64,000 nucleotides of DNA from Desulfuromonadales bacterium (GTDB lineage: Bacteria; Desulfobacterota; Desulfuromonadia; Desulfuromonadales; SZUA-540): the NCBI GenBank assembly GCA_033549025.1, contig JAWSUS010000007.1, forward strand, positions 32,001 through 96,000, in the 5' to 3' direction. The notes beneath the pieces are model-generated. The model saw only the letters and a program-made list of their open reading frames with translations, did no database searches and had not been told where the DNA came from. The position numbers and the translations under genes were made by a program. The stretch's first letter is position 1; every line of letters begins with the position of its first letter. Shown here piece after piece: positions 10,468-32,850 of the stretch.

Positions 10468-11910
10468 TTACTCGCCCCGCAGTTTTCGAAGGACCTCCGG
10501 ATTTTCTTCATCTTCAGCCAGAATGACATGACAGGTCATGCAGTCGCCGGAAATCGTCTGACCATCCTCGCTTTCGTGCATGTCGTCATGGCAGCGAAAG
10601 CAGCCAATATCAAAGTTTTCCCCATGCCCAATATGATTGATGTAGGTGTTCCAGGCAATATTCATGCTGGGCCAGACGTTTTGTCGGTAGGCCGCCTGGG
10701 TTCCGCGTATGGCTGTCTGCAGCCATTGGGGTTTAGACGCCAACAGGTCGGGGTATCGTTCTTTGTACCAGGTCGTCAGGCGCTCGGCGATGGCGGTTTC
10801 CGCTTCATCCTGGCTGGTGTAGCTGGCGGTGATGGCGACAAGAGCCTGCTCCTTGATGAAAGGCAATTGTCTGGGAATCGCGCCGGAGAGGAGCTTTTCA
10901 TCCAGGGCCGCCTCTGGGCTGCGATAAATGTGAGTGGGCCGATTGTGGCAATCGATACAATCCATCTCTCTTGTTTCCAGGTGTTCCGTATCTTCTTGGG
11001 TGCCTGAACGGAAAACGGTCTGGGTGCCGTCGGCCCGGGTCAGGGTGACTACCGGTATAGTCAGGCGTTTTTCGTCGGATTGATAAGTAATGGTGTTTTC
11101 AGGCGCAACGTGCCAGTGGATGCCGTGGGCATTTTCTGTCAGGTTTCCCGCCGAGCCGATTTTCATCAGCATTACCGTCTGAACGTGGGTGTTTTTGTCG
11201 TCAGCCAGGAACTTGTCGTTGACGATGAGTTTTTCGCCGTGGAACTTTTCGGGCTGATGGCATTCTTCGCAGGTTTCGCGGGCGGGGCGCAAGCCATGAA
11301 CCGGCGTCGCAATCGGACGCGGATAGGTGTCGAGAGCGACGGCGAACAACTGCCTGGCCCCGGATATTTTAGACTTCACGAACCAGGTGGCACCAGAGCC
11401 GATATGGCACTCTACACAGTTGACCCGCGAGTGGGGGGAATTTTGGTAGGCGGTATATTCCGGTTCCATGACTGTGTGGCAGAACTTGCCGCAAAAGGCA
11501 TTGGATTCGAGGTAGTGATAGCCGCTGTAGCCGAGCAGGGAAAAGATGAAAAGGTTGGCACCGGTCAGAAAGATGCCGAGAAAAATGAGTTTGCGTACGC
11601 GGGCAAACCGCGTTTCGTCCGTAAAATGTTCTTTCAGGTAATCCAGCGTAAAAAGACGGACCTCCTCTTTCCCCTTCAGGAAAAACAGGCCCACAAAGAC
11701 CATTGCCAGTCCCCCCATGAAGGCGGGCCCGAGAATCATGTAAATGATGGCCCCCATGTAGGGATTGTCAATGTGCCACAGGGAATCGATTATCACCAGT
11801 CCGAGCAGAAAAGGGAATACCGCCGTGGTGATAATGGCTCCGACCAGAGAAACTCTGCTGCGAGCTATGCCTTTAAAAAATGCATCCAGGATGTTTTTCA
11901 GGTTTCCCAT
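10468..11910 (-). CDS. imcH: Inner-membrane NapC/NirT-type multiheme cytochrome c, ImcH-like
   Basis: Three N-terminal TM segments (IDNPYMG..IIY); heme motifs CGKFCH (CX3CH), CVECH, CEECH, CIDCH, CFRCH, CMTCH; orthology judged from recalled architecture only. Confidence 0.7.
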   Translation of the reverse strand: MGNLKNILDAFFKGIARSRVSLVGAIITTAVFPFLLGLVIIDSLWHIDNPYMGAIIYMILGPAFMGGLAMVFVGLFFLKGKEEVRLFTLDYLKEHFTDETRFARVRKLIFLGIFLTGANLFIFSLLGYSGYHYLESNAFCGKFCHTVMEPEYTAYQNSPHSRVNCVECHIGSGATWFVKSKISGARQLFAVALDTYPRPIATPVHGLRPARETCEECHQPEKFHGEKLIVNDKFLADDKNTHVQTVMLMKIGSAGNLTENAHGIHWHVAPENTITYQSDEKRLTIPVVTLTRADGTQTVFRSGTQEDTEHLETREMDCIDCHNRPTHIYRSPEAALDEKLLSGAIPRQLPFIKEQALVAITASYTSQDEAETAIAERLTTWYKERYPDLLASKPQWLQTAIRGTQAAYRQNVWPSMNIAWNTYINHIGHGENFDIGCFRCHDDMHESEDGQTISGDCMTCHVILAEDEENPEVLRKLRGE

Positions 11911-12155: not shown

Positions 12156-12377
12156 TTAAAATCCTGAAATGGCACTGAACCAACCTTGGGCGAGGCCGAT
12201 AGGGCCTCCGGCGGCGATAGCCCCCCCCACGAGACAGGCAATTCCCCAGATGCCGATCAGGGCGGCGAAGGCCAGGGTCAGAATAAAGGAGACCCTGAAG
12301 GTGATTCTCATCAAAACCAGGCCCAGTTGCGAATGAACCTTTTCTTGGACTTGAACAGCAGCCTGAACGTTGCTCAT
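12156..12377 (-). CDS. Small membrane protein (73 aa) with W-x3-C-x2-GG motif
   Basis: AAGGAG RBS; MSNVQAAV...LIGIWGIACLVGGAIAAGGPIGLAQGWFSAISGF; own terminator. Confidence 0.75.
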   Translation of the reverse strand: MSNVQAAVQVQEKVHSQLGLVLMRITFRVSFILTLAFAALIGIWGIACLVGGAIAAGGPIGLAQGWFSAISGF

Positions 12378-12898: not shown

Positions 12899-13060
12899 AT
12901 GAAGACAGCCTATCAGGTCAGGGCAGGAAAAGCGGTAACCAATTACCTTGCTTCCGCTAGCATGATTGGACTTTCCATTGCAGTCGGACTGGCAGTTTCA
13001 AGCGCTTTGGTTGCAGCTCTTTGGGCTCCGATGACCGTAGTGTTAAGCGGTCTCTTCTAG
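12899..13060 (+). CDS. 53-aa single-TM microprotein (not in ORF track)
   Basis: AGGAG RBS; MKTAYQVRAGKAVTNYLASASMIGLSIAVGLAVSSALVAALWAPMTVVLSGLF; followed by a terminator. Confidence 0.7.
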   Translation: MKTAYQVRAGKAVTNYLASASMIGLSIAVGLAVSSALVAALWAPMTVVLSGLF

Positions 13061-13505: not shown

Positions 13506-14726
13506 ATGGATCAGATGCCAAAAACCCAGAGAATGACCTTGAATGAGATTGAAAGCATTGTCTCCGGACGACTGCTTTCCGGTGGTGCCGGATATTATTT
13601 TGGCGTCATCATTTCCGCGCTACTGGTCGTGGCAGCGCTCGTAGCCGGTGTTCACTCCTTTATTGTTGGACATGAGCACACTTACGGGGTAACCAGAGAG
13701 GTGCCCTGGGGGATTCTCATTGCGACTTATGTCTTCTTTGTCGTCACTTCCACGGGACTCTGTCTCGTGTCCTCGATCGGGCATGTTTTTGGAGTCGAGT
13801 CCTACATGCCGATAGCCAAGCGGTCGGTCTTTCTCTCCATCGCGACCATTCTGGCTGGATTTTTTGTTATTGCCTTCGAAATTAAAATCCCTTGGCGGAT
13901 GGCGATTTACAATGTCATTTCTCCCAACATCACCTCCAATATCTGGTGGATGGGTACACTCTACGGGGTTTACCTTGTCCTGATGATATTTGAGTTTCTC
14001 TTCCTCAACCTGAACAAACACAAACTGGCGGTGGCCATGGGTTTCGGTGGCGCGGTTGCTGGTATCGCCGCGCACAGTAACCTCGGCGCCGTTTTTGGCC
14101 TCCTTATGGGCCGCGAGTTCTGGCACGGTCCCTACATGTCCATTTACTTCATCGCTTCGGCCATGATGACCGGTACCGCCGTAATTTTTCTTTTCCACTA
14201 TCTTGCCTACAAGGTTAACGGCGAAGACCTGAGCCTTGATGGACCGATGGTGGCCTCCCTGGATGTGGTACGTCGCCTCGGGATCCTCCTCATCTGCGTC
14301 ATCATATTCTTCACAACCTGGAAAATGGTTGCTGGTGTTGCCGGCATGCCCGGTGGCAAGTACGAAGCGGTCATGGCTCTGGTCAAAGGGCCCTACGCCA
14401 TTAACTTCTGGCTGTTTGAGGCAGGGTTCGGCCTGATCTTCCCGCTGCTCCTTTTCATTCTCTCCAAGGGTAAAAACCTGATGATGATGTTCGTTGGGTC
14501 GGCGATGATGATTGTCGGTATTTTTATCATGCGCTACGACCTGGTGATCGTCGGCCAGATTGTTCCGGTTTATCATGAGCTCGGCGTCAATGAGTTCAGC
14601 CACCTCCTGTCCTACACCCCCTCCTTCCACGAGATCATTATCACTTTGGGTGGTTTTGGGGTGGCGTTCTTTCTCTTCCTGGTGGGAGAGAAGCTCTTTG
14701 CCGGACACAAAGTCGAACATCATTGA
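13506..14726 (+). CDS. NrfD/PsrC-family quinol-oxidising membrane subunit
   Basis: VPWGILIATYVFFV, SNIWWMGTLY, REFWHGP, RYDLVIVGQ; about 10 TM. Confidence 0.9.
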   Translation: MDQMPKTQRMTLNEIESIVSGRLLSGGAGYYFGVIISALLVVAALVAGVHSFIVGHEHTYGVTREVPWGILIATYVFFVVTSTGLCLVSSIGHVFGVESYMPIAKRSVFLSIATILAGFFVIAFEIKIPWRMAIYNVISPNITSNIWWMGTLYGVYLVLMIFEFLFLNLNKHKLAVAMGFGGAVAGIAAHSNLGAVFGLLMGREFWHGPYMSIYFIASAMMTGTAVIFLFHYLAYKVNGEDLSLDGPMVASLDVVRRLGILLICVIIFFTTWKMVAGVAGMPGGKYEAVMALVKGPYAINFWLFEAGFGLIFPLLLFILSKGKNLMMMFVGSAMMIVGIFIMRYDLVIVGQIVPVYHELGVNEFSHLLSYTPSFHEIIITLGGFGVAFFLFLVGEKLFAGHKVEHH

Positions 14727-14772
14727 TGAGTTTCAGGTCTACTAGCGATAAGCATTTGAAGGAGAATATAGC

Positions 14773-15528
14773 ATGAAGAAAAATAAGGTCGAATTCGACG
14801 GCTTGCAGAATGAAGGAGTGGAGAATGCTCCCGTAGAGGATCGACGTCGTTTTCTGAAAATGGGCCTTGCCCTCACCGGTGTCTTTGCCGGCGGTACCCT
14901 TTACTCCGCCACCTCGGCGGTAAACAAGGTTTATGCTTCAGCTGGCGAGTATGCCAAGAAATATCCGTACAAGCCTCATTACAGCATGATCATGCACCAG
15001 GATCGTTGTATTGACTGCGAGCGCTGCATGGCGGCTTGTGTCAAGACCAATAATGTGCCCGAGTATGGTTACCGAACGACGATCCTCGAAAGAGAAGTCA
15101 AGGATGCCGTTGGCCAAAAGCGGGAATTTATTCCCGTCCTTTGCAATCACTGCAACCTTCCCCAGTGCACCAGGGTTTGCCCGACCCGGGCTACGTATAA
15201 AGATAAAGCCACCGGCATCGTCATGATGAACGCCGCTAAATGTATCGGGTGTTTGACCTGTCAGCAAGGGTGCCCCTACAATGCGCGCTATTTCAGCGAG
15301 GAAAAACATGCGGTCGACAAATGCAATTTCTGCATCGATACGCGACTGTCCAAAGGCGAGACCCTGACGGCCTGCTCTGAAGCCTGCCCTGCTGATGTCA
15401 GGGTGTTTGGTGACCTTTCGGATCCCAATAGCCGTATTTACCGTGAGGTTCATCAGATCGAGAAAACCGTCTGGGTTCTGCGGCCTGAGGCCGGTACGCG
15501 ACCCAATGTTTTCTATACTCGCGGCTAA
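14773..15528 (+). CDS. NrfC/DmsB-type 4Fe-4S protein with Tat signal
   Basis: DRRRFLK; CIDCERC, CNHC..PQC..VCP, CIGCLTCQQGCPY, KCNFC...CSEACP. Confidence 0.9.
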   Translation: MKKNKVEFDGLQNEGVENAPVEDRRRFLKMGLALTGVFAGGTLYSATSAVNKVYASAGEYAKKYPYKPHYSMIMHQDRCIDCERCMAACVKTNNVPEYGYRTTILEREVKDAVGQKREFIPVLCNHCNLPQCTRVCPTRATYKDKATGIVMMNAAKCIGCLTCQQGCPYNARYFSEEKHAVDKCNFCIDTRLSKGETLTACSEACPADVRVFGDLSDPNSRIYREVHQIEKTVWVLRPEAGTRPNVFYTRG

Positions 15529-15587
15529 AGACTCGAGCCTGATTCCCAAAGGCTCTGACCCCATTTGTGAATAGCGGAGGTTTAATC

Positions 15588-16229
15588 ATGAATAAGTTCA
15601 TGTTGCGCGCATTTGGCGCCATATTGTTGACGTTGTTGGCGACGGCTCCGGCCCTTTGGGCCGAGGAAGAAGATTTTGGCGGTCCGGAGATCGCCTATGA
15701 GCAGCCGGTCAAAGGGGTATCTTTCAGCCACAAAACGCATGTGGGTGACTACGGTTTCTCCTGCGACAGCTGTCATGACGGTATCTTTGACATGATGGTC
15801 GGCGCCGCCTATGAAAATGGCGACTTTACGATGGACAGCCTGTATCAGGGCAAATACTGTGGCGCCTGCCACGACGGGTCCATGGCTTTTGCCGCCAATA
15901 CCCAGTGTGCCTCCTGCCATGTGCAGGATGGTGGCGATGTTATCTATACCGAGCCGGTCAAAGGGGTTCTTTTCAGCCATGATGTTCACGGCCAGGTCGG
16001 GCTGGATTGCGCCAGTTGTCACGATGGGCTCTTTGAAATGCGCTCTCTTGCTGCCCAGGAAAATGCCAACTTTGTCATGGAGGCTCTCTACGAGGGCGAG
16101 TATTGCGGCGCCTGCCATGACGGTTCTATGGCGTTTGCCTCCGATACCCAATGTGCGACCTGTCATATTGGCGTCAAGGGATTGCGTCGCGCTACTGGTT
16201 CCGCAACAAAAGAGCAAGCCGCTCACTAA
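15588..16229 (+). CDS. Periplasmic hexaheme cytochrome (two tandem c7-type domains)
   Basis: GGAGG RBS; six CxxCH; internal duplication PVKGVxFSH...CxSCHDG.F.M...YCGACHDGSMAFA..TQCAxCH. Confidence 0.9.
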   Translation: MNKFMLRAFGAILLTLLATAPALWAEEEDFGGPEIAYEQPVKGVSFSHKTHVGDYGFSCDSCHDGIFDMMVGAAYENGDFTMDSLYQGKYCGACHDGSMAFAANTQCASCHVQDGGDVIYTEPVKGVLFSHDVHGQVGLDCASCHDGLFEMRSLAAQENANFVMEALYEGEYCGACHDGSMAFASDTQCATCHIGVKGLRRATGSATKEQAAH

Positions 16230-16285: not shown

Positions 16286-16486
16286 ATGGCAGAGCCGAAA
16301 AGACTGGCGCTAAAACTTATCCGGTTTGTGGTTATCATGATAGTCGCCTCTGTCATGACGGCGGCCGTGCTGATTCTCGCTGTGCCCGACCTGGGCAAAT
16401 GGCCCACGGTTATAAGCGCAGTGGGGATCGCCCTTCTCGTCGCCATGTATGATATGGGTCTCTTTAAGGGCGACTTTGAAATCTGA
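16286..16486 (+). CDS. Small two-TM membrane protein
   Basis: 66 aa, two hydrophobic stretches, co-oriented with flanking genes. Confidence 0.55.
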   Translation: MAEPKRLALKLIRFVVIMIVASVMTAAVLILAVPDLGKWPTVISAVGIALLVAMYDMGLFKGDFEI

Positions 16487-16582
16487 TTCGCAATTTCAGG
16501 CTACCCTGCCAGAATTTTCGCGTTTCGTGCCGAGTTTCCGTGCCCCTATTCCACCCTCTAGCTTGCTTCCTCTGTATTGCTT

Positions 16583-17911
16583 ATGCCCAAAGTAGACCAC
16601 TGTAAACAGTTGACTGTCATATTGAACAGCGTCGCCGACGGTGTCTTCACCGTTGACGATCGTATGCGGATTACCCTTTTCAATAAGGCGGCCGAGGAAA
16701 TTACGGGGTTTACCGAAGAAGAGGCGATGGGCAGGCATTGCCATGATATTTTCCGCACGGATGTCTGCTTTACGTCCTGTCCCGTCAAGGAAGCCCTGGA
16801 ATCCGGCCAGCCCGTTATAAACCGCGAAGTTGATATCATCACGAAGGAGGGGAAGAAGGTCCCCATCTCGATCAGTGCCTCGGTGCTGAAGGATGAAAAT
16901 GGTAAGCCTCTCGGCGGTGTGGAAACCTTTCGGGACCAATCCCTTATCTACGCCCTCAAAAAAGAGATAGAAGAAAAATACACCTTTCATGATCTGGTCA
17001 GTCGCAATCCCGCTATGCGACGTCTTTTCGATGTGCTGCCCGATATTGCCTCCAGTGAAGCGACCGTGTTGCTAAAAGGAGAAAGCGGGACCGGAAAAGA
17101 ACTTTTTGCGCAGGCCATTCATGATTTAAGTCCCAGGCGCAAGGGGCCTTTGGTCATTGTCAATTGTGGGGCTCTGCCCGAGCCTCTTCTTGAGGCTGAA
17201 ATATTCGGGGCCCGGCGAGGAGCCTATACCGGGTCCATCGAAAATCGCCCAGGACGCCTGGAGATGGCGGAGGGAGGCACTCTTTTTCTTGATGAAATTG
17301 GCGATCTGCCTCTCCCTTTGCAGGTTAAGCTGCTGCGGGTCCTCGAGAACCATGAATATCAGCCCCTGGGAGCGAGAAGCCCACAGAAGGCCGATGTCCG
17401 TTTTCTCACGGCGACAAACTGCGACCTCGAAGATATGGTTGAAAAAGGAACTTTCCGCCGGGACCTGTTTTTTCGCATCAATGTAGTGGCTTTGCAGATT
17501 CCGCCTCTACGTGAGCGTCCGGAGGATATTCCTTTATTGATCGATGTTTTCCTTGACCGTTTTAATCGGACCTACGGGAAGAAGATCAGGGGATTTTCTG
17601 GAGAGGCACTCCAGCTTTTACTTAGTCATCAATATCCCGGCAACGTCCGGGAGTTGCTTAATCTTGTGGAGCAGACGGTTATCCTCTGTCGGAGCGGAGA
17701 AATTGGCGTTGAACATCTTCCGGCCGGTTTCCTTGAGGCCAGCGACCGTGATGAAGATGTCAGCTTCGGGAGACGAAGTCGGATCAATAAAGCCATTCTT
17801 CAAGATCTGCTTGCCCGCTACGAGGGGAACCGGACCAAGGTGGCCAAGGAATTGGGAGTGGATCGAACCACCTTGTGGCGATGGATGAAAAAATTTGATT
17901 TAAGTAGCTAG
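16583..17911 (+). CDS. sigma54-dependent activator, PAS-AAA+-Fis HTH, OrpR-like Cys-PAS
   Basis: PAS with C-x8-C-x3-C; GESGTGKE, GAYTG, LFLDEIGD, PGNVREL, LGVDRTTLWR. Confidence 0.92.
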   Translation: MPKVDHCKQLTVILNSVADGVFTVDDRMRITLFNKAAEEITGFTEEEAMGRHCHDIFRTDVCFTSCPVKEALESGQPVINREVDIITKEGKKVPISISASVLKDENGKPLGGVETFRDQSLIYALKKEIEEKYTFHDLVSRNPAMRRLFDVLPDIASSEATVLLKGESGTGKELFAQAIHDLSPRRKGPLVIVNCGALPEPLLEAEIFGARRGAYTGSIENRPGRLEMAEGGTLFLDEIGDLPLPLQVKLLRVLENHEYQPLGARSPQKADVRFLTATNCDLEDMVEKGTFRRDLFFRINVVALQIPPLRERPEDIPLLIDVFLDRFNRTYGKKIRGFSGEALQLLLSHQYPGNVRELLNLVEQTVILCRSGEIGVEHLPAGFLEASDRDEDVSFGRRSRINKAILQDLLARYEGNRTKVAKELGVDRTTLWRWMKKFDLSS

Positions 17912-17972: not shown

Positions 17973-17986
17973 ATGTCTGGCGGGTG

Positions 17987-18128
17987 TGCAACAATCCTGT
18001 TGCAGTCATTTGGCGTTGCATTAAGCAACATGTTGCAAATATGTTGCAACGATAGACTGTGGCGCTAAAAGGGCCCTTGCCGAGGGTCTGGACAATTGCA
18101 GGATGCATCAGTGTTGCAGGGCGCAACA
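17987..18128. promoter_or_regulatory. Putative upstream activator site cluster 1 (TGTTGCA/TGCAACA repeats)
   Basis: TGCAACAatccTGTTGCA, CGTTGC-N5-GCAACA, TGTTGCAaataTGTTGCAACG, AATTGC-N5-GCATCA, TGTTGC-N5-GCAACA. Confidence 0.65.
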
Positions 18129-18225: not shown

Positions 18226-18241
18226 TGGCACAACTCTTGGA
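18226..18241 (+). promoter_or_regulatory. sigma54-like -24/-12 promoter (variant -12)
   Basis: TGGCAC-AACTC-TTGGA, preceded by an AT-rich tract. Confidence 0.6.
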
Positions 18242-18279: not shown

Positions 18280-18639
18280 ATGGGAAGTCAAAATCTTAGA
18301 ACGAAATCGGGTGAAAAAATAGCAGTGCCCTACTACGGAGCCCTGGTAAGACCTAAATCTGGCTTTGAGAGTCTCTATCTTGTTGCAGATGTTGCAGCAG
18401 GAACAACTACAGCGTTGCAATTTGAGGTTTGCGTCTGGGATAAAAACAGGCGACCTAAAATAGCCGAGTGGTTGCAAGAGATAGGGGTAAAAGGCGTAAT
18501 TTGCAGCGACGAAAAAGTGGAAATGGAAGAACTTTTGGCCTGTGAAGGGATCTGGTTGGAAAAAGGCAAAATGGGAGATGCTACAGACCTGGTAGCCATG
18601 TATGTCAACAGTATTAATAGCATCGGAAACATTAACTAA
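18280..18639 (+). CDS. Divergent NifB/NifX-like protein, paralog 1
   Basis: GGAG RBS; KIAVP...IAEWLQEIGVKGVIC...L..EGI pattern; clear paralog of 19712-20092. Confidence 0.65.
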   Translation: MGSQNLRTKSGEKIAVPYYGALVRPKSGFESLYLVADVAAGTTTALQFEVCVWDKNRRPKIAEWLQEIGVKGVICSDEKVEMEELLACEGIWLEKGKMGDATDLVAMYVNSINSIGNIN

Positions 18640-18658
18640 CAGCAAAGGAAGGTGTCTT

Positions 18659-18802
18659 ATGAGAGTCGAAAACAGCAAAAGCAAGCCGGTAAGTGACAAG
18701 TATCTTCGAAACACTCTGATGGCCATGGGCGTGGTCGCACTGTCTGCCAGCCTTTACGTAGCTTGGCCAGCCCTGGTCCATCTGGGCAGTAAAATGATTT
18801 AA
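18659..18802 (+). CDS. 47-aa single-TM microprotein (family member a)
   Basis: AGGAAGG RBS; MRVENSKSKPVSDKYLRNTLMAMGVVALSASLYVAWPALVHLGSKMI; P10, Y15, W36 in register with neighbours. Confidence 0.7.
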   Translation: MRVENSKSKPVSDKYLRNTLMAMGVVALSASLYVAWPALVHLGSKMI

Positions 18803-18853
18803 GACGATCATTCAAAAAGCATTTAAAAAAACCTTTAAAAAACGGAGGACATT

Positions 18854-19015
18854 ATGAGAACCGAGAATCTTATCACTGATCCGATCAAAGCCACCTACAA
18901 ATATGGCGTCTATAGTGCAATGGGCTTCGTTGGACTCAGTCTTGCGGCCTTTATCGCTTGGTCCTTTACCTGCGCCGGCGGTGCCTTGGTCGAAGTGATT
19001 GGCAAAATGGTGTAG
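18854..19015 (+). CDS. 53-aa single-TM microprotein (member b)
   Basis: GGAGG RBS; MRTENLITDPIKATYKYGVYSAMGFVGLSLAAFIAWSFTCAGGALVEVIGKMV. Confidence 0.85.
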   Translation: MRTENLITDPIKATYKYGVYSAMGFVGLSLAAFIAWSFTCAGGALVEVIGKMV

Positions 19016-19049
19016 CAGATCAAATAAACTTACAGGATAGGAGGCAGCT

Positions 19050-19211
19050 ATGAAAACCGAAAACATTATAAGTGAACCCATCAAAACAACGTATAAGGTT
19101 GGCGTTTACAGTTCTGTGGCCTTTGTAGGTATTTTCCTGGCAGCCTTCATATCCTGGTCTTTCTGCTGTGCGGGCGGCGCTATTATCGAAGGATTGAGCA
19201 AGCTGATTTAA
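19050..19211 (+). CDS. 53-aa single-TM microprotein (member c)
   Basis: AGGAGG RBS; MKTENIISEPIKTTYKVGVYSSVAFVGIFLAAFISWSFCCAGGAIIEGLSKLI; gap-free paralog of b with many synonymous differences. Confidence 0.85.
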   Translation: MKTENIISEPIKTTYKVGVYSSVAFVGIFLAAFISWSFCCAGGAIIEGLSKLI

Positions 19212-19255
19212 GAGGGTAGAAAAAAGTTTAAGAGAACGACAGAAAGGGGGCGGTG

Positions 19256-19414
19256 ATGATGTTGTACACAGGTAATAAACCAATAGGTTTGGGAGCTGGT
19301 ATTGGAATGCTTGCCGCGCTTGTGTTCATAGGGTTTATCACCTCCCTCTTTCTGCTGTGGTCGGTGTCCTGTATTGGTGGGGGCGCAATTGTCCTGGCGG
19401 GTGGATTTTGCTGA
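19256..19414 (+). CDS. 52-aa TM microprotein (member d)
   Basis: AAAGGGGG RBS; MMLYTGNKPIGLGAGIGMLAALVFIGFITSLFLLWSVSCIGGGAIVLAGGFC (53 aa if the GTG at 19253 is used). Confidence 0.7.
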   Translation: MMLYTGNKPIGLGAGIGMLAALVFIGFITSLFLLWSVSCIGGGAIVLAGGFC

Positions 19415-19447
19415 GAATGCTTTAGGGCGTGTAGCGCCAGCGGCGGG

Positions 19448-19570
19448 TGTTGCAAAAAACAAGCAATGCATCAATTGTTGCACTTAAGTGAAACGCTTAA
19501 GTGGCCCATCTGCAAATAAAAACAAGATGGCCAGCCGCGTAGACTCATACGACATGTTGCAAATGTAACG
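19448..19570. promoter_or_regulatory. Putative upstream activator site cluster 2
   Basis: Three TGTTGCA copies including TGTTGCAAATGTAACG; shares GGCGGGTGT(T)GCAA and ATGCATCA..TGTTGCA context with cluster 1. Confidence 0.55.
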
Positions 19571-19663
19571 TCTGAAATTGGCCATATTTAAAGCGTCATA
19601 AGAAACAAGAGTCTAAGTAGCCGAAATCAAATCGGAATAAGAATTGGAAGAAATCTTAACTTA

Positions 19664-19679
19664 TGGCATGACTTTTGGA
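19664..19679 (+). promoter_or_regulatory. sigma54-like -24/-12 promoter (variant -12)
   Basis: TGGCAT-GACTT-TTGGA, similar position relative to the gene as 18226-18241. Confidence 0.6.
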
Positions 19680-19711
19680 GTAGGTGAGAGACGGTAGAAA
19701 AGAGGGGGTCT

Positions 19712-20092
19712 ATGAGAGCTGAAAATAGTGTAACCAAGCCCCTTTCAGGTGTTTATAGACACTTGTTGGAAAAAGACGAGTGCAATCGAATCGCCATCCC
19801 CTACTACGGCGCCATCATGAGGCCGGGGGTAGGTGTCGAGAAGCTTTATTTTATTGCGGATGTTGACAAGAAAAACTCATCTTTGAAGCGCGTGTTTCTG
19901 GAGGTATGGAATTCGAAGATTTCACCAGAACTCCCAAGCTGGTTACGTGATAAGGGTGTGAGTGGGCTGGTCTGCCGGGATGGTTGTCAGAGTTATCTTC
20001 AGCCGATGGAAGCAGCTGGAATCAAAGTGCTGTTGGACAAGGCCCTTGATCTTGCCTGGATTGAAGGTATGGCTACAACATCACGAAGATAG
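19712..20092 (+). CDS. Divergent NifB/NifX-like protein, paralog 2
   Basis: IAIPYYGAIMRPGVGVEKLYFIADV vs IAVPYYGALVRPKSGFESLYLVADV; WLRDKGVSGLVC...AAGIKV. Confidence 0.65.
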   Translation: MRAENSVTKPLSGVYRHLLEKDECNRIAIPYYGAIMRPGVGVEKLYFIADVDKKNSSLKRVFLEVWNSKISPELPSWLRDKGVSGLVCRDGCQSYLQPMEAAGIKVLLDKALDLAWIEGMATTSRR

Positions 20093-20141
20093 AGTGCTGG
20101 TTAACCAAAGATGAATGTTATTGAGCAAGAGGTGGAACGAC

Positions 20142-20573
20142 GTGAGGATCGCCATTACAGCCAGAGGGTCCCACCCTTCCAGTGAAGTTGACGAATGTTT
20201 TGGACGGGCCTATTGGGTTTTGATTTTTGAGACCAAAACCGGAAATTATACGGCAATCAATAATTCAGAAATTCGAAATTCCCAGGAAAATGCGGGAGTC
20301 AAAGCGGCAAAACTGCTTGAGAATAAGAAGGTCGATGTATTGTTGACTGGGGAAACTGGCCCGAAAGCTTTCAGATCCTTGGTCGAAAAGGGAATAAAGG
20401 TGTTCCATGGAGCGTCTGGTTCAGTCGAGGAGGCCTTGAACACCTGGCTCAGAGGGGAGATGAAAGAGGCTGAACACGCCAATAGCCCAGGTAGTCCTTA
20501 TTGCCTGGTTGTTCAATCAAAAACAACGCAGGTCGATGCACCTAAGGTTCTGCTTGACCTGCTGAAGACATAG
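20142..20573 (+). CDS. NifB/NifX-family (Orange-protein-like) metal-cluster-binding protein
   Basis: GAGGTG RBS and GTG start; RIAIT...VDECFGRA, AGVKAAKLL, VDVLLTGETGPKAF..L..KGIKV, GSVEEAL. Confidence 0.85.
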   Translation: MRIAITARGSHPSSEVDECFGRAYWVLIFETKTGNYTAINNSEIRNSQENAGVKAAKLLENKKVDVLLTGETGPKAFRSLVEKGIKVFHGASGSVEEALNTWLRGEMKEAEHANSPGSPYCLVVQSKTTQVDAPKVLLDLLKT

Positions 20574-20622
20574 AAAGGTTTTTCCGCCGCATTCCCAAAA
20601 GGCGGAAACCATGGAGGTGAAT

Positions 20623-20784
20623 ATGAAAAAACACCAAAAATTCTTTAAGGTCCTGAATTCATTTTACAGAATCGGTTTATACAATATTGTCGCGGCCATG
20701 GTTGTGTGGTGCTCGATTTTTGTCATCTGGTCGATTGTCAACTTTGTCGTGACCTCAAAAGTGGGCACGGGTGTTTTTATTTAA
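20623..20784 (+). CDS. 53-aa single-TM microprotein (member e)
   Basis: GGAGGTG RBS; MKKHQKFFKVLNSFYRIGLYNIVAAMVVWCSIFVIWSIVNFVVTSKVGTGVFI; Y15, G18, Y20, W36, S37 in register. Confidence 0.75.
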   Translation: MKKHQKFFKVLNSFYRIGLYNIVAAMVVWCSIFVIWSIVNFVVTSKVGTGVFI

Positions 20785-20810
20785 GTTCATTGAATATTGA
20801 GGTTATTTGA

Positions 20811-20972
20811 ATGAAAACACAGTTCGTTCTTCCCATTGAAATCAGGCACGTTTTTAAAATCGGCCTTTTCATCGTTATATCAATGATTGGGCTTGCCGTG
20901 TCTGTCTTCATTCTTTGGGCGGTTTTTTGTATGGGGAGCGCCTGCATTCAGGTGCTGGCCACTGGCCATTAG
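20811..20972 (+). CDS. 53-aa single-TM microprotein (member f)
   Basis: GAGG RBS; MKTQFVLPIEIRHVFKIGLFIVISMIGLAVSVFILWAVFCMGSACIQVLATGH; G18, G27, F33, W36, C40, G42 in register. Confidence 0.75.
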   Translation: MKTQFVLPIEIRHVFKIGLFIVISMIGLAVSVFILWAVFCMGSACIQVLATGH

Positions 20973-21054
20973 CCGACTGTGCTCTTTGGTAAATAAAGAG
21001 GCTGATCAGGAAATTAGGCAATAGTAAAGAGACCTGGCTTCTCGATTCGATAAG

Positions 21055-21855
21055 TTGATCTCTAAATTTTTTGTGCTAAATGATGAAATGAACCACTTAT
21101 CCGGACCTATAGATTTTTGGACCACGGATTTATTCCAGAGTAATAAATCAGCGGACAGTGTTCCTGGAAACGAATGTCCATGTTGCGGATCCATTAAAAT
21201 TTATGCTCTGGGTGATGGCCGGAAAAAATGTGGGATTTGTGGGAAAAAGTTCAGTCAAACTGCCAGAAAAAGGCGAATTTCCAAGGTTCTGTTAAGGCAG
21301 GTGGTTGAGCAGTTCGTTGCCATGGTGCCGGCAAAGCAGGCCGCTGGAGTTGTTGGGGTAAATCATAAAACGGCCCTAAGGGTTTACAGGGATATACGGA
21401 GGGCTCTGGTCCGAAAAAATCAGCAATTGGCCCTCCGGTATATGGAGGAATGTCAGTCGACGACAGATATTTTCGCCTGTAGCCCTGGAGAGGAGACTCT
21501 TCCGTTATTTGCTGTGGCAATTCAGAACCAGAAAATAGTGCTCTTACCTGCTCGATACCAAGGGTCGTGGATCAAGGTTCATTTCCCTGCTTCGGTAATT
21601 TATGCTGATCGCATGACAGCGATGACCCTTGATTTTGAAAACTTTGATCAAAAAACGCTTGGAAGCCACGCGGCATCATGGCCTGTAAAACCCTGGTTTT
21701 TTTGGCCTTATGCCAAGGAGCAATTCAAGATTTATCACGGCGGAATGAAGGTCAACTTTTGGCTTTTTTTGCACGAAATGGCCTTTCGATTCAATTTTTC
21801 CCTTTCTGGCGATCAAGAGGAGGGCATCATCGATGACCTTGTCGCCTGTTTATAG
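21055..21855 (+). CDS. IS1595-transposase-derived protein (Zn ribbon, HTH, degenerate core)
   Basis: CPCCG...KKCGICGKKFS, GVNHKTALRVYRDIR, FWPYAK..F..YHG....F.LFLHEMAFRFN; no recognisable DE(S/T)Y motif; start uncertain (ATG 21088 possible). Confidence 0.7.
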   Translation: MISKFFVLNDEMNHLSGPIDFWTTDLFQSNKSADSVPGNECPCCGSIKIYALGDGRKKCGICGKKFSQTARKRRISKVLLRQVVEQFVAMVPAKQAAGVVGVNHKTALRVYRDIRRALVRKNQQLALRYMEECQSTTDIFACSPGEETLPLFAVAIQNQKIVLLPARYQGSWIKVHFPASVIYADRMTAMTLDFENFDQKTLGSHAASWPVKPWFFWPYAKEQFKIYHGGMKVNFWLFLHEMAFRFNFSLSGDQEEGIIDDLVACL

Positions 21856-21909
21856 AAAGACCGTTTTAAACGGTCATGTGTTTTTCACTTTTAATGGAGG
21901 AGCGATGAA

Positions 21910-23748
21910 ATGAAGTTCTGCCGAATTCTCACTGTAGTTCTTGGTGTTTGGCTACTGGGTGCTGCTGTTCCTGCCCTGGCCAAAATGGCCCCCGATCCGA
22001 ATGCCTGTCTTCAGTGTCATGAAGATGTGGTATCAGCCGCCGAATTTATGGATTCGGTCCACGGGAAAAATGCCTGTACAAGCTGCCATGTAGAAGTTAC
22101 TGATCTGGATGAGCACTTGGCAGGGAATATTGAAATCAGCCCTGTAAATTGCGCGACCTGTCATTCCAATGAGGATAAAGCCCACGTTGACAGCGTGCAT
22201 GCCGAAAGCGGTATCGGCTGTGTTGAGTGCCACTCGGACATTCATGGCCAGCAAAAAATGGATAGTTCCAAAGTGGCCTTGGTGGAAAAATGCAGTGAGT
22301 GCCACGATGTCGAAAGCTATGTCCAGTCAAGCCATGGTATGGCCATTGCGGCCGGTAAAAATGATTCCGCCGCCTGTAACGATTGTCATGGTGTTCACAA
22401 CATAGCCAGGGTTCCGGACCCGGACACTGCAGAAGGTGGCGCCTTCAAATCAGCACCCTGTATTGCATGCCATGCTGATGAAGAAAAGATGGAGCATGCC
22501 GGGGTCAATGCCCATGCGGTAGAAACTTACCTCGAAAGTTACCATGGAAAGAATTACCGCCTTGGTTTTCCTCAGCAATCCGCCGGCTGCGCCGATTGCC
22601 ACAGTAGTCATGGTGTTCTGCCGCCTAGTCATGCTGAATCAACCATTGGCGAGGCGAAGATCGTCGAAACCTGTGCCACCTGCCATCCTAAAGCCACATC
22701 GCAATTTACCAAATTTTATGCACATGGCGATCATGGCGATCGGGAAAATTACCCGATCATGTATTACACCTTTATCAGTATGACGGGTCTTCTGGTCGGA
22801 ACGTTCGCCGTCTTCTGGATTCACACCCTCCTGTGGATGTTCCGCGGTTTTGTTGAAAACAGACAAAAGGCAGCCGCTCTAGCTGCGGGACACGAAGAAC
22901 ATCATATCTCCGAAGCCCACAAACAATATCGACGGTTTGAAAAACGTCATATTTTCCTGCACCTTACCGTAATAATCAGCTTCCTCGGGCTGTCCCTTAC
23001 CGGTTTGCCTCTGAAATTTGCTGATCAGCCTTGGGCCCAAACCATGATGTCGTTCTTTGGTGGGGTCCATTATGCTGGCCTTATTCATCGAGGGTGCGCG
23101 ATCCTGACCTTCTATTATTTCGTCGGCGCCATCCTGATGAGCATCGACTTCCTGTTTGTTCGCAAGGACATTAAAGCTCATCCCTTTGTCAGGCTGTTCG
23201 GCCCGGACTCTTTGATGCCAAACTTCCGGGATGTCCGCGATGTGACCGCGATGGTGCGCTGGTTCTTTTTCAAAGGGCCCAAGCCGACTTTTGAGCGGTG
23301 GACTTACTGGGAAAAATTCGATTTCCTCGCGGTCTTTTGGGGTATGTTTGCCATCGGCGGTTCCGGTCTGTTGCTGTGGTTTCCGGAAATTTTCGGCACC
23401 TTCCTGCCGGGCTGGATGTTCAACGTGGCGACCATCATACATTCCGATGAAGCGCTGTTGGCCACCGGGTTTATTTTTACTGTTCACTTCTTCAACACCC
23501 ATGGCCGTCCCGAAAAGTTCCCCATGGATTTTGTAATCTTCAATGGGCAAATGTCCAAAGAGGAATTTGTTGAAGAGCGTGGCGATCAATGGAAGCGTTA
23601 CGAAGAGGAAGGTACGACGGAGAATTACGTTGTCACCAAACCCAGCGGGGTGTTGTATGACTTCTTCTTCAAAGGATTTGGTTTCCTCGCCTTCTTCACG
23701 GGAATCACCCTGGCCATCCTGATGCTCTACGCATTTATCAGCGGATAG
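21910..23748 (+). CDS. cbcL: CbcL-type bc cytochrome (nonaheme c domain fused to a b-type membrane domain)
   Basis: Nine CxxCH, then an FdnI/HydC-like TM domain (LHLTV..SF.GL.LTGLPLKF, YWEKFDFLAVFWG, IHSDEALLA..FIFTVHFFNTH). Confidence 0.88.
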   Translation: MKFCRILTVVLGVWLLGAAVPALAKMAPDPNACLQCHEDVVSAAEFMDSVHGKNACTSCHVEVTDLDEHLAGNIEISPVNCATCHSNEDKAHVDSVHAESGIGCVECHSDIHGQQKMDSSKVALVEKCSECHDVESYVQSSHGMAIAAGKNDSAACNDCHGVHNIARVPDPDTAEGGAFKSAPCIACHADEEKMEHAGVNAHAVETYLESYHGKNYRLGFPQQSAGCADCHSSHGVLPPSHAESTIGEAKIVETCATCHPKATSQFTKFYAHGDHGDRENYPIMYYTFISMTGLLVGTFAVFWIHTLLWMFRGFVENRQKAAALAAGHEEHHISEAHKQYRRFEKRHIFLHLTVIISFLGLSLTGLPLKFADQPWAQTMMSFFGGVHYAGLIHRGCAILTFYYFVGAILMSIDFLFVRKDIKAHPFVRLFGPDSLMPNFRDVRDVTAMVRWFFFKGPKPTFERWTYWEKFDFLAVFWGMFAIGGSGLLLWFPEIFGTFLPGWMFNVATIIHSDEALLATGFIFTVHFFNTHGRPEKFPMDFVIFNGQMSKEEFVEERGDQWKRYEEEGTTENYVVTKPSGVLYDFFFKGFGFLAFFTGITLAILMLYAFISG

Positions 23749-31860: not shown

Positions 31861-32850
31861 GTGGAAAAACAGCTGTACCTTTCATCGTCTCCCCATATCC
31901 ATGCCGGGGAAACCACCGAAAAGATCATGCGAGCTGTTATCTACAGCCTCCTGCCTGCCTGTGGCGTGGCGATCTATTTTTTCGGTTTCAGGGCCCTGCT
32001 GATTCTGCTCCTTTGCGTTGCTGGCTGCATGGTTGCTGAAGCGGTCTGTCAGAGGTTGATGCATAGGCCGGTCACTATTGCCGATGGCAGCGCTGCCCTT
32101 ACGGGAATTCTGCTGGCGTTGAATCTGCCGCCATCCAGCCCCTGGTGGCTGGCCCTTCTGGGCGCCGTTATCGCCATCGTGATCGGCAAGCAGGTCTATG
32201 GCGGGCTCGGCTACAATCCCTTCAATCCGGCGCTGGTGGCCCGTGTCGTTCTGCTGATTTCCTTTCCCGTGCAGATGACCGCCTGGACAAGCCCCGCGCC
32301 GCTGGGTTCAAAGGTCGATGTTGTTACCGCCGCGACGCCGTTGGGAGAAATGAAAACCGCGGTGATGCTTACCGGTGAACTGCCCCTTGCCGCCAAACAG
32401 GGGTTCTCGGATTATTTCATCGGCCACATGGCCGGATCTTTGGGTGAAATCTCCGCTTTGGCATTGCTTCTTGGCGGCCTGTTTCTGTTGTGGCGACGCA
32501 TTATCACCTGGCATGTGCCTGTATCCTTTATTGGCTCCACCTTGGTTTTTTCCGGTATTTTCTGGCTCGTCGATTCCAGCCGCTATCCCAGCCCCCTTTT
32601 TCATCTGCTCACCGGCGGTCTCATGCTCGGGGCTCTCTATATGGCGACGGATATGGTGACCGGTCCGGTGACTCCTAAAGGCCTCATCGTTTTCGGAGCG
32701 GGTTGCGGGATCATCACGGTGCTGATCCGGCTTTTCGGCGGCTACCCGGAGGGCGTCTCCTTTGCCATTTTGCTCATGAATGCTGCCACCCCTTTGATTG
32801 ATCGCCTGACCCGGCCTAGAAAGTTCGGCCTGGTTGAGGCGAGGCGTTGA
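31861..32850 (+). CDS. rnfD: Rnf complex subunit D
   Basis: SSPH, GGLGYNPFNPAL, TAATPL FMN site, GGYPEGVSFAILLMN; GTG start. Confidence 0.95.
   Translation: MEKQLYLSSSPHIHAGETTEKIMRAVIYSLLPACGVAIYFFGFRALLILLLCVAGCMVAEAVCQRLMHRPVTIADGSAALTGILLALNLPPSSPWWLALLGAVIAIVIGKQVYGGLGYNPFNPALVARVVLLISFPVQMTAWTSPAPLGSKVDVVTAATPLGEMKTAVMLTGELPLAAKQGFSDYFIGHMAGSLGEISALALLLGGLFLLWRRIITWHVPVSFIGSTLVFSGIFWLVDSSRYPSPLFHLLTGGLMLGALYMATDMVTGPVTPKGLIVFGAGCGIITVLIRLFGGYPEGVSFAILLMNAATPLIDRLTRPRKFGLVEARR

Follow-up and report, generated by a model that had tools for sequence, protein, structure and literature searches.

A conserved family of small membrane proteins encoded beside the menaquinol oxidase gene cbcL in Desulfuromonadia

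The question raised by this locus is what a cluster of six very small membrane-protein genes, here named a to f, does among the quinol oxidase genes of a Desulfuromonadales bacterium. The genes lie at positions 18659-20972 of a 64,000-nucleotide stretch of contig JAWSUS010000007.1 (assembly GCA_033549025.1, contig positions 32,001 to 96,000), which we call the window. A preliminary description, made from the letters of this DNA, had proposed that they form a single array of paralogues in one fixed register that serve the neighbouring respiratory complexes. We found that the six genes belong to a real, conserved family that has no curated name and stands in a respiratory and regulatory context, and we tentatively propose that they encode accessory helices of the menaquinol-oxidizing apparatus.

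Six small coding genes in two subfamilies

All six open reading frames (ORFs) are on the + strand, as first described, and they encode peptides of 47 amino acids (aa; a, 18659-18802), 53 aa (b, 18854-19015; c, 19050-19211; e, 20623-20784; f, 20811-20972) and 52-53 aa (d, 19253-19414). Each has the purine-rich ribosome-binding site (RBS) and the single hydrophobic helix that had been attributed to it; the best duplexes with the anti-Shine-Dalgarno sequence range from -6.3 to -10.6 kcal/mol, and the start-site regions show little RNA structure, with open RBSs and short, unstructured spacers. Counted from the first codon without gaps, tryptophan occupies position 36 in all six peptides, an aromatic residue position 15 in five, and C40-x-G42 is found in four, in agreement with the preliminary description; G18 is present in five rather than in the four that it reported. 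For d, the GTG start that yields 53 aa is possible, but the RBS lies very near this codon, and the ATG at 19256, which yields 52 aa, may therefore be the real start. The pooled ratio of nonsynonymous to synonymous substitution rates (dN/dS) of the six ORFs was 0.089 and 0.074 against two congeneric genomes (Fisher p < 1e-37), and peptide a showed no amino-acid change at a dS of 0.6-1.4. Selection on coding had also been argued from the many synonymous differences between b and c; the two are 62% identical, and their synonymous sites are saturated. The six ORFs are real protein-coding genes, with a coding signal far above chance. Three runs of one study gave RNA-library contigs over 18511-20327 and over 20364-21008, and one run of another study gave contig cover of 19138-19347; because such libraries can hold DNA, these contigs are compatible with expression and are no proof of it, and they can neither rank the genes nor demonstrate transcription.

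The six ORFs are not a uniform set. Sequence comparison divides them into two ancient subfamilies: a WP type of 47-48 aa with W36-P37, to which a belongs, and a C type of 49-54 aa with W36-S-x-x-C40, to which b to f belong. The supposedly fixed W36-x3-C40 register thus describes the C type and does not extend to a, which lacks C40. The WP and C profiles align across residues 1-37 (hhalign, 96.5%), the WP profile picks up b at E 1.3e-4, and the two cores split with an ultrafast bootstrap (UFBoot) value of 100 in a tree of 15 paired loci. A block-shuffle test of paralogy among the six gave p < 0.005 in every case, but the fixed start and the W36 register bias this test; paralogy therefore rests on the hhalign comparison and the match of the WP profile to b. 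A further gene, h (12899-13060, +; dN/dS 0.04-0.06), lies between imcH and nrfD, 5.6 kb upstream of a, and encodes a diverged WP-type member; it occupies the position held by WP pairs in another group of genomes, and no sigma-54 site was found upstream of it. Gene g (12156-12377, -), tried as another member, was left out at an hhalign probability of just 21.6%. The gene lies upstream of imcH; its hydrophobic product of 73 aa is conserved (dN/dS 0.02-0.05) and has a weak likeness to the C type and no Pfam or NCBIfam family.

The preliminary description did not recognise the family, and our searches returned no characterised one. For the six ORFs, Pfam gave no hit at E <= 0.01, the best E values were 0.13 in NCBIfam and 0.084 in PHROGs, and PADLOC gave no hit. 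No curated family was common to more than 5 of 67 WP members or more than 1 of 29 C members, and no fitting family was found in the PDB by sequence. ESM Atlas returned solely unnamed clusters with scores under 0.9, Foldseek found no match to the WP model, and VIA-align found generic helices (best Z 4.5, root-mean-square deviation 4.3-6.2 Å over 47 residues). One ESM Atlas lead, DUF7186 (PF23815; scores 0.77 and 0.85), was rejected, as PF23815 had no match at E <= 10 in the genome that holds the window. A search of the openly accessible main literature turned up neither the family nor any accessory peptides of CbcL; such genes may be listed as hypotheticals in the supplements of omics papers.

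Homologues are conserved across the class Desulfuromonadia. The WP type comprises 713 clusters at 90% identity, with 83 representatives at 50%, and the C type 27 clusters; the matches that carry names are hypothetical proteins of Desulfuromonas and Desulfuromonadales. Among 301 genomes of the class, 69 had WP matches, four of them weak (G046, G076, G117 and G192; these rows were removed before counts), and 35 matched the C profile. Of the latter, 28 are genuine, and all 28 also carry WP and a gene for a NifX-like protein of the PYYG subfamily; the seven removed were four matches inside an ORF of 745-747 aa (three inspected), one inside a 246-aa ORF and two WP cross-hits. In a sample of the phylum, 6 of 16 class members matched, and so did 2 of 385 others, solely inside long ORFs (528 and 752 aa) that were removed before counts. 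Nearly all WP representatives are free-standing (82 of 83 are at most 123 aa, and one 223-aa record looks chimeric on reading), and no C-type fusion was found among proteins of 96-2000 aa, in a search that yields weak evidence.

Tryptophan at position 36 is present in 61 of 65 sequences, a count helped by a choice of start that favoured that register. C40 is kept in just 28 of 40 C-type sequences, with G, S, N or A in the other 12; entire C-type lineages carry G, S or A there, e of this locus lacks the cysteine, and the whole WP subfamily is without it. Cysteine-based metal or redox chemistry, which had been suggested for the array, is therefore not supported as its shared core. A lipobox precedes C40 in 0 of 40 C-type sequences, and a lipoprotein was rejected. 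H41 is found in 23 of 25 WP peptides from genomes with the module, and at that position the wider WP alignment has 69% Y and 7% F. G18 is present in 35 of 40 C-type sequences and is not conserved in WP. WP and C partners share their class of N-terminal tag in 15 paired loci (seven EN/EN, seven KxK/KxK and one other), which is effectively one lineage switch and could reflect 5' gene conversion or a shared targeting signal.

The model of b is one long helix (predicted local distance difference test score, pLDDT, 79), and that of a is helix-break-helix (pLDDT 73), with a predicted membrane helix, a break at W36-P37 and an amphipathic C-terminal helix that carries H41. Charge bias predicts that the peptides insert with the N terminus inside (N-in) and that C40 and H41 face outward. 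The C-terminal tail is amphipathic in 25 of 25 WP and 32 of 38 C sequences, and small residues line one face of the helix (in WP, G24, A27, A31, A35 and A38).

Promoters, activator and linkage to cbcL

All six genes of the proposed array are present, but they are not contiguous: they lie in two operons, X1-a-b-c-d and X2-X3-e-f, the second behind its own sigma-54-type site. X1 (18280-18639, +) is the diverged NifX/ORP-like protein of the PYYG subfamily found in all genuine C-type genomes, X2 (19712-20092, +) is a second PYYG NifX-like protein, and X3 (20115-20573, +; likely start GTG 20142) is a Nitro_FeMo-Co protein (NifB/NifX, ORP-like). The M-R-x-E-N tag of the microproteins also opens X2 (window 19712-19756), and it is found at the start of the X1 ORF in two other genomes (L138:6358-6822 and L140:7303-7767). 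A sigma-54-type promoter at 18226-18239 (+) would drive the first operon, and another at 19664-19677 (+) would drive the second, possibly reading on into an IS1595-like ORF and cbcL. Enhancer regions precede both: one at 17986-18127, with clustered GTTGCA half-sites and GTTGC-N5-GCAAC palindromes at 18015 and 18113 that are putative activator sites, and one at 19449-19561, with three GTTGCA half-sites. The two sigma-54 pattern matches are by themselves within chance for the window. Across 24 upstream regions of the family, which include close kin, a sigma-54 site was found in 23, against 1% of random windows, and at least three GTTGCA half-sites in 23, against 0.06%. A scan of the genome found just three promoters that combine a sigma-54 site with an enhancer, two of them at this locus; the third (G000:C13:41147, L179) adjoins a sigma-54 response-regulator gene and may be another target of the activator.

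That activator, a PAS/sigma-54 protein of the OrpR type, is encoded at 16577-17911 (+) and carries C53, D55, C62 and C66, matching C-x-D/E-x6-C-x3-C. In OrpR of Desulfovibrio vulgaris, [4Fe-4S] binding and activity at low potential were shown, and the corresponding positions are C52, D/E54, C61 and C65 (PMC8359166). The cysteine motif was found in the activators of 24 of 25 loci. The proposal that a redox sensor induces the genes is consistent with this cysteine spacing and with the conserved sigma-54 site and enhancer. Where the cassette appears to have been transferred (L023, L044-L046, L137, L143 and L144), the activator has two tandem PAS domains; in the six of these loci for which the second domain was scored, both carry the motif. 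The locus resembles the OrpR regulon and the ORP complex of D. vulgaris in the Cys/Asp spacing of the activator and in its NifX/ORP-like neighbours (PMC8359166, PMC4641369); it differs in its targets, here genes for membrane microproteins and quinol oxidases, and in that the window shows no gene for an Mrp-type ATPase. The enhancer motif, GTTGC-N3-5-GCAAC, was derived from these loci.

Downstream of the second operon lies a cbcL-type menaquinol oxidase gene (21910-23748, +), whose product joins a multihaem c domain to an FdnI-like cytochrome b domain. A second candidate quinol-oxidase partner is encoded by an NrfD / 4Fe-4S / c7-cytochrome operon (13506-16229, +), which we take to be Cbc4-like, and an imcH-type NapC/NirT multihaem quinol oxidase gene lies at 10468-11910 (-). 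The names CbcL and ImcH were assigned by domain architecture (PMC6295460). In many genomes the core unit is X1, WP, C, an IS-like ORF and cbcL, near the activator; b is the usual partner gene of a. Two genomes of other families (G010 and G018) have the order X1, X3, a, b, d, e, f, IS-like ORF, cbcL. The diversification of b to f is old, since orthologues of d occur in two other families and those of e in at least one (UFBoot 99 for both orthogroups), and the duplication that produced b and c is seen in this genus. By these comparisons, a two-gene unit underwent lineage-specific expansion to give the array of six.

Linkage to cbcL is widespread. In 48 of the 59 genomes for which both positions are listed, cbcL has a family member within 11 kb on its own contig, and in ten of the remaining 11 the microgene and cbcL are on separate contigs; outside the 59 are five WP genomes without a cbcL match and one without a listed position. 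In G033, G054, G202 and G271, a WP gene stands immediately upstream of cbcL. In G008 and G060, which have no cbcL match, WP genes lie inside an activator-NifX (X1)-nrfD operon. Copies of the imcH-nrfD type lie within 6 kb of imcH, nrfD or cbcL in 27 of 37 named genomes. In family f28, which belongs to another order, the CbcL of 15 WP-bearing genomes matches that of the window at E <= 1e-154 and the CbcL of 53 genomes without WP at E >= 1e-151 (68 of 69 tallied), a clean split. In a midpoint-rooted tree of 40 chosen CbcL sequences, 22 with a microgene nearby and 18 without, the five tested CbcLs of f28 modules group with those of families f2 and f23 on the Desulfuromonadales side (0.96-0.99), apart from the 11-member native f28/f29 clade (1.0). 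The cassette appears, from these sequences, to have crossed orders together with cbcL.

In several lineages the microgenes recur as tandem copies and as copies far apart. A core of 510-600 bp, made up of a promoter, two WP genes and a terminator, is present at three loci each in G183 and G236; pairwise comparison of these loci gives 95-98% identity in five of six cases, and the sixth alignment extends into the flanks (87% over 798 bp). Dispersed copies at two old syntenic sites have a median DNA identity of 0.95 within genomes (13 pairs), against 0.80 for same-site copies between genomes (453 pairs), and this homogenisation within genomes points to concerted evolution. Dispersed C+WP copies retain 4-6 enhancer half-sites.

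Several neighbouring genes are of interest in their own right. The IS1595-like ORF (21055-21855, +; likely start ATG 21088; dN/dS 0.2) keeps a zinc ribbon, a helix-turn-helix and a C-terminal motif, has no invariant acidic triad and stands directly before cbcL in 17 aligned loci (mostly at 24-31% identity); it looks domesticated and is possibly a DNA-binding regulator. An inverted repeat follows it at 21859-21875. Between the c7 cytochrome and activator genes, a 66-aa hydrophobic ORF (16286-16486, +) is conserved in several families and has no named family. An rnf cluster, a nuo cluster and menaquinone-pathway genes follow one another at 29024-50290 as a long energy-metabolism block.

Possible functions of the microproteins

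We propose that the six genes encode single-pass inner-membrane accessory helices, induced at low potential, of the menaquinol-oxidase apparatus, with CbcL as the first partner, an explanation to which we give slightly less than an even chance. The adjacent activator would hold a [4Fe-4S] cluster and turn the operons on at low redox potential, a range that would coincide with the one in which CbcL works; CbcL shuts off above about -0.1 V (bioRxiv 10.1101/2022.08.31.506072). Inserted N-in, the peptides would pack the small-residue face of their helix on the cytochrome b domain of CbcL, bringing the W36 anchor and amphipathic tail to the periplasmic surface, close to the haem-c domain. They may stabilise, assemble or tune the enzyme in the manner of CydX or CcoQ, and the diverged paralogues b to f could serve further sites or further oxidases, such as the NrfD complex and ImcH. 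Because most genomes with cbcL lack the peptides, they would be modulators rather than obligatory subunits. The link to the neighbouring complexes that the preliminary description drew is supported by the synteny, the co-transfer with cbcL and, weakly, a complex model.

Besides synteny, co-inheritance with cbcL and sigma-54/enhancer regulation, precedent counts for accessory helices. Single-helix accessory subunits are found in cytochrome bd (CydX/CydH), in cbb3 oxidase (CcoQ/CcoS) and in cytochrome b6f (PetN), with CioY as another example, and these families share little sequence among themselves (PMC12648545). Like the CydX- and CcoQ-type subunits, which have 30-60 aa and one membrane helix, the microproteins are encoded beside an oxidase. 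Unlike them, they match none of the known models, form two subfamilies with up to seven members per genome and dispersed copies, have their own sigma-54 promoters and are absent from most genomes that have the enzyme. By analogy, they would work most like CydX/CcoQ-type peptides, yet they stand outside those families. Modelled in complex with b and residues 278-612 of CbcL, a scored 0.38; the best of three controls scored 0.00. At least 72% of contacts were common between runs, and the partner pLDDT was at least 65. The mark used was reached by 116 of 157 solved pairs and 2 of 215 mismatched pairs, in a calibration on plain pairs; at scores of 0.60 or less it was reached by just 18 of the 157 solved pairs and by both mismatches. 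As 0.38 lies in this poorly separating range, the model gives weak support. A control with CbcL replaced, in which a stood beside b and scored 0.00, counts neither for nor against binding between a and b. A PDB sequence search found no solved relative of the CbcL membrane domain. Cytochrome b folds related to this domain have been solved.

A number of observations weigh against such a role. CbcL has no general need of WP, since 247 of the 301 class genomes have cbcL and just 69 have WP. Of 20 cbcL regions fetched as contrasts, 18 have no family member nearby, and the activator-NifX-nrfD operon occurs without one in four genomes (L180-L183). Two of these four carry unrelated 72-79-aa membrane ORFs after the c7 gene instead. 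Linkage and co-transfer indicate shared regulation, not contact, and complex scores in the range obtained mislead more often than not unless the pairing was already likely. Further, cbcL usually occurs as a single copy, whereas the microgenes have multiplied and spread, with more than one locus in 26 of 37 genomes and some copies standing alone with their own promoter and terminator. This pattern suits a structural protein made in bulk better than a subunit in a 1:1 ratio.

Such a bulk protein, doubtful in our view, is the main rival explanation: WP and C would self-assemble, as pairs and then as rings or palisades, and bend or organise a membrane rich in quinol oxidases, for example the intracytoplasmic membranes made under energy scarcity. 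Geobacter builds such membranes at low potential (PMC10082016). The WP and C gene pair is a recurring unit, amplified both in tandem and at dispersed sites where the copies are homogenised within a genome and keep the enhancer, and its products combine the amphipathic tail with a small-residue helix face. However, codon usage of the six genes lies at the 0-17th percentile of a genome-wide index whose reference set is crude (atpB reaches just the 33rd), with no sign of adaptation to high expression in this genome; WP matches in family f29 occur in just 2 of 53 genomes, one of them weak; and membrane invaginations in carriers of the family are a supposition. Membrane shaping and a role as accessory helices are not mutually exclusive. 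A bolder suggestion, which we consider unlikely, is that the WP/C pair is a non-photosynthetic counterpart of the antenna alpha/beta pair, an abundant, redox-induced hetero-oligomer around CbcL and other menaquinol oxidases. It would build a curved, quinone-retaining membrane for low-potential acceptors, with b to f as swappable ring subunits. Light-harvesting alpha and beta apoproteins are paired single-helix paralogues of about 50 aa with a conserved tryptophan, multicopy pucBA genes and redox-controlled expression. The WP/C pairs are alike in size, single helix, tryptophan, multiple copies and predicted redox control, by analogy only; they differ in having no conserved intramembrane histidine to match that of the light-harvesting peptides (0 of 65 sequences have one in residues 15-36: 0 of 40 C and 0 of 25 WP), no Pfam or PDB match and non-phototrophic hosts.

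Other functions fit less of the evidence. The size and topology of the peptides would suit small membrane regulators of the MgrB or SafA kind (PMC12648545) that provide feedback or cross-talk by binding a membrane sensor kinase, chemoreceptor or protease instead of an oxidase, and the C-type profile matches the first membrane helix of the 745-747-aa protein in 4 of 12 f30 genomes (E 2.6e-7 to 3e-5). That helix is presumably a sensor-like signal anchor. We think such regulators improbable: the resemblance is of a generic kind, basic residues followed by hydrophobic ones, the inspected loci have no membrane sensor or protease as a recurrent neighbour, and the adjacent activator is a soluble one-component protein. 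Ligation of haem or a metal at the periplasmic face by H41 or Y41 of WP and C40 of the C type, with the cofactor possibly supplied by the NifX-like proteins, draws on the frequent H41 and C40 and on the constant presence of the PYYG gene. It is decidedly improbable given the replacement of C40 in 12 of 40 sequences and the Y and F at position 41 of the wider WP alignment, which fit an interfacial aromatic anchor; the NifX-like proteins are, on reading, without a signal peptide, whereas the predicted orientation places C40 and H41 on the outer side. Type IV and Flp prepilins have a basic N terminus, a glycine and then a hydrophobic helix, and the C type alone resembles them, with K/R-x-G18 before a hydrophobic run in products of multicopy genes. 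That the peptides are short pilin or coat-like filament subunits cleaved after G18 is nevertheless very improbable, as glutamate at +5 is found in 0 of 40 sequences, WP has no G18, the two types have no common cleavage register, the inspected loci showed no genes for pilus or phage assembly, the only PDB pilin match has E 0.14, and no relative was found in viral contigs or PHROGs. To type I toxins, bacteriocins or precursors of ribosomally synthesized and post-translationally modified peptides we give scarcely any credence. Small, hydrophobic, multicopy ORFs, some in dispersed near-identical units, would suit them, but the conservation is very strong, synteny with core respiration genes is fixed, the RBS regions are open and the spacers short and unstructured, no Rfam antitoxin (E <= 1) or PADLOC hit was found, and no modifying enzyme, transporter or immunity gene stands beside the array.

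Implications for respiration in metal reducers

How metal reducers switch between ImcH, CbcL and Cbc-type oxidases with the potential of the acceptor, and how they come to make extra inner membrane at low potential, are open questions. The locus offers a compact link, in which a single activator of the redox-sensing type and a single enhancer motif go with a family of microproteins; this family travels with cbcL and appears to be among the most conserved outputs of the activator. If the comparison with antenna proteins were true, the WP/C pair would be the first candidate membrane-shaping factor in metal-reducing bacteria. Since annotation overlooks most of these genes or leaves them without a name, omics data already collected in electrode and Fe(III) work could be searched for them again.

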